From a virus: a DNA stretch of 10,283 bases. A program made the position numbers and the translations under genes. The stretch lies in UHGV virus genome UHGV-1551590; one strand, given 5' to 3'. Numbering within the stretch: position 1 is the first letter of the stretch; each line of letters opens with the position of its first letter. Under the pieces are notes generated by a model. It was not told the DNA's origin. It ran no database searches and saw only the letters and a list, made by a program, of their open reading frames with translations. Shown piece after piece: positions 8,264 to 10,283 of this stretch.

Positions 8264-8434
8264 ATGTTTGTCAAACCTGTTAAAGGGCGGTCAGTTCCTG
8301 ACCCTGCCCGCGGCGACCTTTTGCCCGCCGAAGGGCGAAATGTTGACGAGAACAACTACTGGCTGCGCCGTGAAGCAGCGGGTGATATCCGGCGCGTGAA
8401 TAAAAAGGTGAACACCGATGACGATAAGCTTTAA
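8264..8434 (+). CDS. Small Mu gp38-like protein (56 aa); not in the supplied ORF track
   Basis: Hand translation gives MFVKPVKGRSVPDPARGDLLPAEGRNVDENNYWLRREAAGDIRRVNKKVNTDDDKL. GAGGA at 8254-8258 precedes ATG 8264. Its 3' end overlaps the sheath start by 17 nt. It resembles the small basic proteins I recall encoded just upstream of the sheath gene in Mu-like tail modules. Confidence 0.55.
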   Translation: MFVKPVKGRSVPDPARGDLLPAEGRNVDENNYWLRREAAGDIRRVNKKVNTDDDKL

Positions 8435-9914
8435 CACCATTCCGTCGAATACGCTGGTTCCGCTGTTTTATGCGGAAATGGATAACCAGGCTGCGAATAC
8501 TGCACAGGACAGCGGAGCATCGCTGCTGATTGGTCATGCCAATAACGGTGCAGAGATTGTTGCCAACAGTCTGGTGCTGATGCCGTCGGCAGACTATGCA
8601 CGCCAGATTTGTGGTGCGGGAAGTCAGCTGGCGCGTATGGTCGAGGCTTATCGCCAGACAGACCCGTTTGGTGAGCTGTATGTGATTGCCGTTCCGGAAG
8701 CCACAGGCGCGGCGGCAACGGTTACGCTGGCGGTGACCGGGGAAGCAACCGAAAGCGGCACGGTGAATGTCTATGTGGGACGTACCCGCGTGCAGGCTCC
8801 GGTGACCAACGGCGATAACGTCACGACGATTGCCAGCAGTATCAAAGATGCCATCAATGCCGTTCCGGCCCTGCCGTTTACGGCTTCATCTTCGGCAGGC
8901 GTGGTCACACTTACCGCGCGTCATAAGGGGCTTTGCGGGAATGAAATTCCTGTCAGCCTCAATTACTACGGCTTTGGTGGGGGCGAAGTGCTGCCAGCGG
9001 GCGTACAGATTGCCGTGGCGACGGGTACCGCCGGAACGGGTGCTCCGGTTCTCACCGGCGCGGTGGCTGCAATGGCGGATGAGCCGTTTGATTATATCGG
9101 CCTGCCGTTCAACGACACGGCCTCCGTTAACACGCTGGTGACCGAGATGAACGATACCAGCGGTCGCTGGAGCTATGCGCGTCAGCTGTATGGTCATGTG
9201 TATACGGCAAAGATCGGCACGCTGTCAGAACTGGTGACCGCAGGTGACCAGTTTAACCAGCAGCACATTACCCTGGCAGGGTACGAAAAAGAGACCCAGA
9301 CGCCTGCCGACGAACTTGCGGCAAGCCGTACCGCCCGCGCAGCGGTGTTTATTCGCAACGATCCGGCACGTCCCACGCAGACCGGTGAGCTGGTGGGTAT
9401 GCTGCCTGCGCCGAAGGGGAAACGGTTCACGATGACCGAACAACAGACCCTGCTGTCTCATGGCGTGGCAACGGCGTATGTCGAAAGCGGGGTGCTGCGC
9501 ATTCAGCGTGATGTCACCACGTACAGGAAAAATGCTTACGGGGTTGCGGATAACAGCTACCTCGACAGCGAGACGCTGCATACCAGTGCGTATGTACTGC
9601 GCAAACTGAAATCCGTCATTACCAGTAAGTACGGGCGTCACAAGCTTGCCAGTGACGGTACCCGCTTTGGTCCCGGTCAGGCGATTGTCACCCCGGCGGT
9701 GATCAAAGGGGAACTGCTGGCAACCTACCGTCAGCTCGAGCGTGCGGGGATCGTGGAAAACTACGAACTGTTCAAGCAGTACCTGGTTGTGGAGCGTGAT
9801 GCCAGCGATCCGAACCGCCTGAACACGCTGTTCCCGCCTGACTATGTTAACCAGTTGCGTGTTTTTGCCGTGGTTAACCAGTTCCGTCTTCAGTATTCAG
9901 AGGAGTCTGCATAA
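8418..9914 (+). CDS. Contractile tail sheath protein (Mu gpL-like)
   Basis: 498-aa ORF with AAGGTG upstream of ATG 8418, followed immediately by a tube-like gene. Size and Gly/Ala/Thr-rich composition fit Mu-like sheath proteins. Confidence 0.8.
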   Translation: MTISFNTIPSNTLVPLFYAEMDNQAANTAQDSGASLLIGHANNGAEIVANSLVLMPSADYARQICGAGSQLARMVEAYRQTDPFGELYVIAVPEATGAAATVTLAVTGEATESGTVNVYVGRTRVQAPVTNGDNVTTIASSIKDAINAVPALPFTASSSAGVVTLTARHKGLCGNEIPVSLNYYGFGGGEVLPAGVQIAVATGTAGTGAPVLTGAVAAMADEPFDYIGLPFNDTASVNTLVTEMNDTSGRWSYARQLYGHVYTAKIGTLSELVTAGDQFNQQHITLAGYEKETQTPADELAASRTARAAVFIRNDPARPTQTGELVGMLPAPKGKRFTMTEQQTLLSHGVATAYVESGVLRIQRDVTTYRKNAYGVADNSYLDSETLHTSAYVLRKLKSVITSKYGRHKLASDGTRFGPGQAIVTPAVIKGELLATYRQLERAGIVENYELFKQYLVVERDASDPNRLNTLFPPDYVNQLRVFAVVNQFRLQYSEESA

Positions 9915-10283
9915 TGGCCCGTATCGGGGGAACCTGTTATTTCAAAATTGACGGTCAGCAGCTATCGCTGACCGGCGGCATTGAGGTGCCCATGAACAGG
10001 ACGGTCAATGATGACATCATCGGCCTGGACGGTTCAGTGGACCGCAAGGAAACTCACCGTGCGCCTTATGTCAAAGGGACCTTCAAGGTGCCGAAGAATT
10101 TTCCGGTGAGCAAAATCACCTCGTCTGATGAGATGACCATCACTGCTGAGCTGGCGAACGGTCAGGTCTATGTATTGTCGTCAGCCTGGCTGCACGGCGA
10201 AGCGAACCATAATGCCGAAGAAGGCACGTGTAGATTCAATCTGTCAATGCAACACCCCTTTCAATTATCTCTTTCGGTGTTTT
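9914..10283 (+). CDS. Tail tube protein (Mu gpM-like). Native sequence appears to end at about 10228 (codon 105); the rest is IS-derived and the ORF runs off the window.
   Basis: AGGAG at 9901-9905 precedes ATG 9914, which overlaps the sheath stop (TAATG). Hand translation MARIGGTCYFKIDGQQLSLTGGIEVPMNRT... has no stop to the window end. Position after the sheath gene and its size class fit a tube protein. Composition shifts to AT-rich at 10229. Confidence 0.7.
   Translation, partial: MARIGGTCYFKIDGQQLSLTGGIEVPMNRTVNDDIIGLDGSVDRKETHRAPYVKGTFKVPKNFPVSKITSSDEMTITAELANGQVYVLSSAWLHGEANHNAEEGTCRFNLSMQHPFQLSLSVF
10229..10283. mobile_element. Probable IS30-family terminal inverted repeat (partial element, continues beyond the window)
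   Basis: TGTAGATTCAATCTGTCAATGCAACAC at 10229-10255 closely resembles the IS30 terminal inverted repeat as I recall it (TGTAGATTCAATTGGTCAACGCAACAG): first 12 nt identical, about 22 of 27 overall. GC content drops to about 36 percent here against a GC-rich background. The junction falls exactly at a codon boundary inside the tube ORF. Confidence 0.5.

Follow-up and report, generated by a model that had tools for sequence, protein, structure and literature searches.

The last gene of this viral sequence (UHGV-1551590; the window, that is, the whole 10,283-nt stretch analysed) encodes a phage tail tube protein whose reading frame runs into the right end of IS30, and the explanation that we hold with high confidence is that an SfV-like prophage received a copy of IS30, by transposition, at a preferred target sequence within this gene. 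This is ordinary prophage damage, and the fusion product is already catalogued in RefSeq; the new point, a modest one, is that the tube site acts like a naturally occurring hot spot for IS30. A sequence-only reading of the window had proposed an IS insertion here; the insertion is real, but it is not a one-off, the site having been struck recurrently and in both orientations. The features at this end of the window are:

8418..9914, + strand: tail sheath gene, 498 aa, intact (ORF list; 'phage tail sheath' in L002; Pfam Phage_sheath in L003-L012)
9914..10228, + strand: native section (codons 1-105) of the 118-codon tail tube gene (Mu gpM / SfV tube family, PF10618; translation and Pfam Tail_tube)
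9914..10283, + strand: tube::IS30 fusion ORF, 105 native and 18 IS-encoded codons (123 aa by translation)
10213..10228, + strand: left half of the IS30 target site, TGCCGAAGAAGGCA plus CG (an A/G-rich run, GGC, one base and the duplicated dinucleotide), resembling other IS30 flanks
10227..10228, no strand: CG dinucleotide, the left copy of the 2-bp target site duplication (comparison of L003 with L002)
10229..10283, - strand: terminal 55 bp of IS30 (55/55 identity)
10229..10254, - strand: IS30 right terminal inverted repeat (IRR), 26 bp, outer end at 10229, identical to full copies
10236-10238, - strand: transposase stop codon (from the anatomy of the full copy in L001)
10239-10283, - strand: last 15 transposase codons (same basis)

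The terminal segment at 10229-10283 (TGTAGATTCAATCTGTCAATGCAACACCCCTTTCAATTATCTCTTTCGGTGTTTT) is identical to IS30 at 55 of 55 positions (E = 9e-20 against complete E. coli genomes), and the 55-base match is found in 3,986 E. coli records, corresponding to 3,659 of the 5,426 complete genomes, with all matches falling under features annotated 'IS30-like element IS30 family transposase'. In the full 1221-bp copy of L001 (1601-2821), whose transposase CDS (WP_001254932.1) stops 8 nt short of the IS tip, the same 55 nt form the end adjoining the transposase stop codon, which identifies them as the IRR end, read as the reverse complement. The first 26 of these nucleotides, 10229-10254, start with TGTAGATTCAAT and agree throughout with the IRR of complete IS30 copies; in a direct comparison within L001, IRR and IRL match at 23 of 26 positions. 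The AT-richness and the IS30 inverted repeat noticed earlier are thus both genuine: G+C is 36% in 10229-10283 vs 55% in the phage part, only 2% of which, taken as 55-nt windows, is equally AT-rich. The element is canonical IS30 itself, beyond mere membership in its family; in comparison with IS30 of Escherichia coli (1221 bp, DDE transposase) no difference is detectable over the 55 nt, which represent only the end of an element whose copies vary by 0-5 substitutions.

The sheath stop codon and the tube ATG overlap (ATAATG), and translation places the tube start at 9914 and not at 9916. Tube residues 1-105 are identical to those of the intact 118-aa protein WP_000090998.1 (in L002), which is itself 100% identical to the SfV/SfI/SfII/SfIV tail tube. 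After T105 the intact homologue continues with VDLEFHGEEGDYQ and a stop codon, 13 residues that are lost in the fusion, whereas the fusion ORF reads CRFNLSMQHPFQLSLSVF after codon 105 (10228); the assignment of residues 106-123 to the IS, with exactly this C-terminus, had been made from the sequence and stands. In full copies a TGA stop closes this frame, and base 10283 is its T; L001 and L003 continue GTG TTT TGA. Uninterrupted L002 DNA at the site reads GGCACGGTTGATCTTGAG. Alignments of uninterrupted prophages (complete genomes; SfII/SfI/SfIV) end at 10235, and the uninterrupted homologous region, present in 1,089 complete genomes, ceases to align at the junction in all of them. We considered and rejected a junction at 10235: the seven extra bases come from a gapped alignment that sets native GTTGAT against TGTAGAT. 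Tube and IS sequence meet at 10228/10229, directly after codon 105. The 123-aa fusion protein is already public (exact matches WP_089578787.1, MBB6804155.1 and TGH30513.1) and occurs in exact form on at least 25 contigs from NCBI, ENA, JGI and Logan. Five separate NCBI assemblies carry the junction, among them L007 (GCA_026283425.1), which is 99.98% identical to the window, with 2 mismatches over 10,283 nt.

By its sequence, the host element is an SfV-like prophage, predicted to have an HK97-type head and a Mu-type contractile tail. The window shares 97.0-97.6% identity over 90-97% of its length with vB_EcoM-720R4, SfII, SfI and SfIV, a group that also includes a second E. coli phage (two E. 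coli phages in all), and prophages in complete E. coli genomes are at most 98.5% identical to it. Its genes run HNH, TerS, TerL, portal, protease, capsid, connectors, terminator, DUF2635, sheath and tube, a structural module collinear with, and highly identical in nucleotide sequence to, that of SfV-group phages, and the remaining structural genes in the window equal those of relatives in length. As in SfV/SfI/SfII/SfIV and Mu (gpM/gp40), the tube gene follows the sheath gene directly and precedes the assembly chaperone gene; unlike the SfV-group tube, its product has had the conserved last 13 residues swapped for 18 IS-encoded ones. IS-disrupted, decaying prophages are a general phenomenon in E. 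coli and Shigella, and the present case resembles them in that the IS interrupts one structural gene while the rest of the module is intact and in that two carriers, L011 and L057, are further deleted; repeated strikes at one nucleotide position set it apart from generic IS-disrupted prophages and suggest that the IS selects its target.

Short-read assemblers are unable to extend contigs through repeated elements, and 55 and like lengths are typical assembler k-mer sizes (SPAdes defaults). Carrier contigs stop within IS30 as follows:

the window: 55 nt into IS30
L058 (SPAdes NODE): 55 nt into IS30
L009-L011: 77 nt into IS30
L008 (k119 MEGAHIT contig): about 119 nt into IS30
L007: 127 nt into IS30

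Because the stops of the carriers match assembler k-mer lengths, the end at 10283 is most simply read as a contig break at a repeat and not as the biological end of a phage, and a short IS stub at the end of a sequence can be taken more generally as the signature of a contig break and not of a prophage end. The same property could be turned against the insertion itself: the junction lies within the last 55 nt, where de Bruijn assemblers leave k-mer overhangs, and no complete genome has it, as would be expected if a chimeric join of phage and IS30 reads had arisen at the contig end. We consider such an assembly artefact extremely improbable, for an identical junction recurs across assemblies, assemblers and k values (NCBI, ENA MEGAHIT and SPAdes, Logan), it coincides with the very tip of the IS and with the top-scoring IS30 target of the module, and one contig spans the whole IS with the correct 2-bp duplication, which a chimera would not produce.

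That contig, L003, supplies much of what the window, holding just 55 nt of IS30, leaves out, and the downstream structure is known from such relatives. L003 is a 136-kb metagenome contig with the identical junction that spans the whole insertion: its IS30, at 10316-11536, is 1221 bp long with IRL present, and the sequence reads GGCACG / IS30 (1221 bp) / CGGTCGATCTTGAG, with CG duplicated on both sides. The transposase (383 aa in L003-L005, with the Pfam domains PF13936 HTH_38 and PF00665 rve) is encoded on the minus strand of L003, antisense to the phage genes. After IS30 come the tube 3' remnant, 39 nt and a stop codon, and beyond it the tail chaperone (TAC), tape measure, DNA-circulation, baseplate and fibre-assembly genes. 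Full 1221-bp copies of IS30 are present in L003, L004 and L005, each with the identical left junction. What the sequence-only reading had predicted downstream, namely a full IS30, its transposase, the second repeat, the duplication and the 3' end of the tube gene, was all found in L003; the boundary of intact phage sequence that it placed here is better read as an assembly break at a repeat, and the tail module of L003 is intact right after the IS.

IS30 duplicates 2 bp of its target and transposes by a copy-out-paste-in route (PMC9333248). We posit that it arrived in this way between codons 105 and 106, at a nearly palindromic, hot-spot-like sequence, and that the insertion duplicated the dinucleotide CG. 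With IRR pointing towards the 5' part of the tube gene, the transposase gene would lie antisense to the phage late genes; the tube would lose its conserved last 13 residues and gain 18 unrelated ones, and the chaperone, tape measure and baseplate genes would be cut off from their operon by a 1.2-kb antisense IS. The source genome would accordingly hold a whole IS30 and the tube remnant downstream of the window: after a simple insertion the far side would read CAATTGAATCTACA CG GTTGATCTTGAGTTCCAC, with the left end of IS30 followed by CGGTTGATCTTGAGTTCCACGGTGAAGAAGGGGATTACCAGTAA and then by the tail chaperone gene.

The junction could also be a real IS30 junction with a rearranged far side, through (i) deletion, (ii) inversion, (iii) recombination with another IS30 or (iv) the presence of an IS30 fragment only. 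Deletions and inversions are among the documented products of IS30 activity (PMC9333248), the prophages of L011 and L057 carry extra deletions, and in L004 (Logan ERR2138727_114, 10316-12945) the tube 5' part is followed by IS30 and then by a 5'-truncated mhpA, the IS being flanked by CG vs GT with no matching duplication. However, L003, the sole contig that spans the IS into prophage DNA, has the structure of a simple insertion, and L004 may just record a path taken by the assembler, the IS30-mhpA junction being that of a resident copy in complete genomes, for example L082 (E. coli KL53, NZ_CP030919.1). L004 was therefore set aside as evidence of an IS30-mediated deletion; either two IS30 copies recombined in it, with a large segment lost or inverted, or the assembler was misled by the repeat. 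We regard a rearranged far side as quite unlikely and a simple insertion as the structure to be expected. The mhpA-mhpB segment of L004 (11537-12945) reaches 99% identity or more in just 102 records, against 80-90% in 4,791, a split which indicates two well-separated allele classes of the mhp locus in E. coli. In L011 (9270-10001; GCA_002226905.1) and L057, the region from the portal gene through the N-terminal two thirds of the sheath gene is missing, and these losses are further decay of an already interrupted prophage.

A fusion of the opposite orientation, in which tube residues 1-105 are followed by CRFNWSTQQLCENMGLRRFFE (built as an expected protein), is found on 22 contigs, the longest of 4.95 Mb, and its junction was confirmed as DNA in L058. 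It occurs also in a second tube allele, N66 (WP_096981003.1), as does the orientation of the window (P0007), and both orientations are thus found in both the S66 and the N66 allele. The 600 nt before the junction fall into at least 8 haplotypes among the carriers. The window and L007 share a flank haplotype that also exists as an uninterrupted allele; at -46 and -82 it departs from every other carrier, and at -54 from every other carrier except L004. The IS30 copies of L003/L005 and L004 differ from each other at 4 sites. An IS cannot be turned round against one of its flanks by homologous recombination, so transposition must have struck the same dinucleotide at least twice. The inverted repeats of a resident IS30 are themselves targets for incoming copies (PMC9333248), and the events may therefore not be fully independent.

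Neither junction is present in any of the 5,426 complete E. coli genomes, which indicates that the insertion is rare, and all evidence spanning the IS comes from draft or metagenome assemblies. The junction gave no match among GTDB representative genomes, as expected of a set with one genome per species; in IMG/VR the right-hand junction gave none in either orientation, and the left junction was matched once there (L057) and once in a metagenome (L058). This low frequency (0 of the 1,089 complete genomes with the region) would fit a single ancestral insertion, or one per orientation, spread by descent and prophage recombination, with no hot spot involved; prophages of the SfV-like family recombine freely, and three SNPs in the 82 nt nearest the junction are common to most carriers. 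Such an origin is nevertheless unlikely in our estimate. The two orientations are not interconvertible by homologous recombination, so that at least two transposition events are needed, and both are found in both alleles; the flank of the window and L007 is that of an uninterrupted allele, differing from other carriers 46 nt from the junction; the IS30 copies themselves differ at 4 sites; and the tube site is the top IS30 target among about 19,000 positions.

The last of these points rests on a weight matrix that we derived from the flanks of IS30 ends, collected in IMG/VR contigs, because no published consensus was located; a search of the literature library, reviews included, did not find an IS30 target consensus in print. 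The matrix was built from 21 non-redundant IS30 half-sites, with the tube sites left out, and was run over the 19-kb structural module as reconstructed. At matrix lengths 12, 14 and 16, the site in the tube gene (TGCCGAAGAAGGCA CG GTCGATCTTGAG) ranked 1 of about 18,965 positions. LHS, a published hot spot at 33290 in lambda that served as the positive control, ranked 5-11 of 48,470; on this rank and this control, the tube site scores like a hot spot. Its right half (GTYGATCTTGAG) scores 7.84 bits vs 5.64 bits for the left half and matches the GC core less obviously by eye than the left half does. Comparable IS30 flanks are CAGAAAAAGGCA/CT, TTAAAGAAGGCT/CT and TTAAAAAAGGCT/AC, and those in IMG/VR contigs share a half-site of approximately T-AAAAA-(G)GC-N followed by two duplicated bases. 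IS30 sites in ycjM and in the late control D gene (complete genomes) resemble the tube site over 12-18 nt of flank.

LHS, at 33290 in phage lambda, was described as a natural IS30 hot spot by Olasz and co-workers (PMC9333248). The tube site resembles it in its nearly palindromic target, A-rich run, G(G)C, central duplicated 2 bp and use in both orientations; it differs in lying in the tail tube gene of SfV-like prophages and in that its proposed status follows from the matrix and from recurrence. Considering the two orientations, the two alleles, the at least 8 flanking haplotypes, the IS30 copies differing at 4 sites and the top matrix rank, we think it probable that tube codons 104-106 of the SfV group constitute a natural IS30 hot spot that has been struck independently several times. 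No description of an IS30 hot spot in the tube gene was found in the literature searched. If true, target choice by IS30 would be a repeatable, sequence-determined way of disarming a widespread family of E. coli and Shigella prophages.

How far the insertion disarms the prophage depends on the tube protein. The fusion scores 103.7 bits against Pfam Tail_tube PF10618 (cut-off 23), 11 bits lower than the intact homologue at 114.9 bits; the intact protein covers the profile to position 115 of 117, and the fusion falls short of the full-length domain. Its similarity to tube homologues ends at T105, whereas phage tube homologues at 22-45% identity align to residues 112-118. The homologue alignment that had been suggested along with the insertion, made here with seven homologues, has its conserved block, (V/I)-D-L-E-F-x-G...(W/Y)-Q, at the very point of divergence of the fusion ORF, and this (V/I)DLEFxG C-terminus persists in homologues as distant as about 21-45% identity. 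Mu gp40 (118 aa), whose structure 9KHY the tube matches weakly in sequence (E = 0.67), is a compact beta-sandwich, and its hexamer forms a 24-stranded barrel to which each subunit gives strands (PMC11915804). Because the lost C-terminus is part of a conserved domain and the Mu homologue is a compact beta-sandwich, loss of tube function is likely, and the prophage is most likely unable to make tails.

A polar effect of IS30 on the downstream tail genes would be expected from the literature, but the scans made here lend it no support. A simple consensus scan found no terminators inside IS30 in either direction, and a consensus scan found no hybrid outward promoter at IRR, where TTGACA is followed 16-18 nt on by GCCTTC/CCTTCT/CTTCTT, a poor -10 by eye. 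The lack of a consensus terminator in either direction and the 89% of the tube protein that is intact would suit a fusion tube that still polymerises, with read-through across IS30 sufficing to keep the prophage viable. We judge this improbable: the lost (V/I)DLEFxG..(W/Y)Q block lies inside the Pfam domain and is conserved to about 21-45% identity, the compact 118-aa Mu homologue leaves little room to lose a terminal strand (PMC11915804), and some carriers are further deleted, as expected of a dead prophage. The tail-defective state thus remains the preferred reading, and prophage-completeness tools will call such prophages intact though their tails are probably not made.

RefSeq gives the name 'phage tail tube protein' to the fusions WP_089578787.1, WP_137490251.1 and WP_096981003.1 (123 and 126 aa), of which WP_137490251.1 is the 123-aa form of the N66 allele and WP_096981003.1 the 126-aa form of the opposite orientation, also N66. 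All three are IS30 fusion artefacts with translated inverted-repeat C-termini and not tube variants. The tube::IS30 insertion opens no new question; it is a small, clean case in which the target specificity of an IS leads repeatedly to the same prophage-inactivating mutation.

Other IS30 copies seen in the course of this work also cluster at particular sites. A second recurrent site in a phage tail gene, GAACCGCTGACAGAAAAAGGCA/CT/TACATTGTTGATG, was seen in L014, L021, L024, L027, L029, L036, L038, L040 and L053 (IMG/VR) and in H82; it lies within a 411-codon ORF with the motif GWKGEPLTEKGTYIVDEI, annotated as late control D / P2 gpD-like, and differs very little from the tube site in its left half. 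Given this recurrent gpD site of P2-like prophages, IS30 may be biased towards a small set of phage tail genes. Most IS30 copies in these Shigella and E. coli IMG/VR contigs occupy one site inside IS3-family transposase genes, in both orientations, with ATATTAAAAAAAGCAAC or TTAAAAAAGGCTAC directly before IS30 (L013, L015, L017, L020, L025, L028, L031, L034 and others; L001 1560-1600). The A-run and G at this site resemble the A6G slippery sequence of the IS3-family programmed frameshift, and the target preference of IS30 may coincide with the IS3-family frameshift signal.
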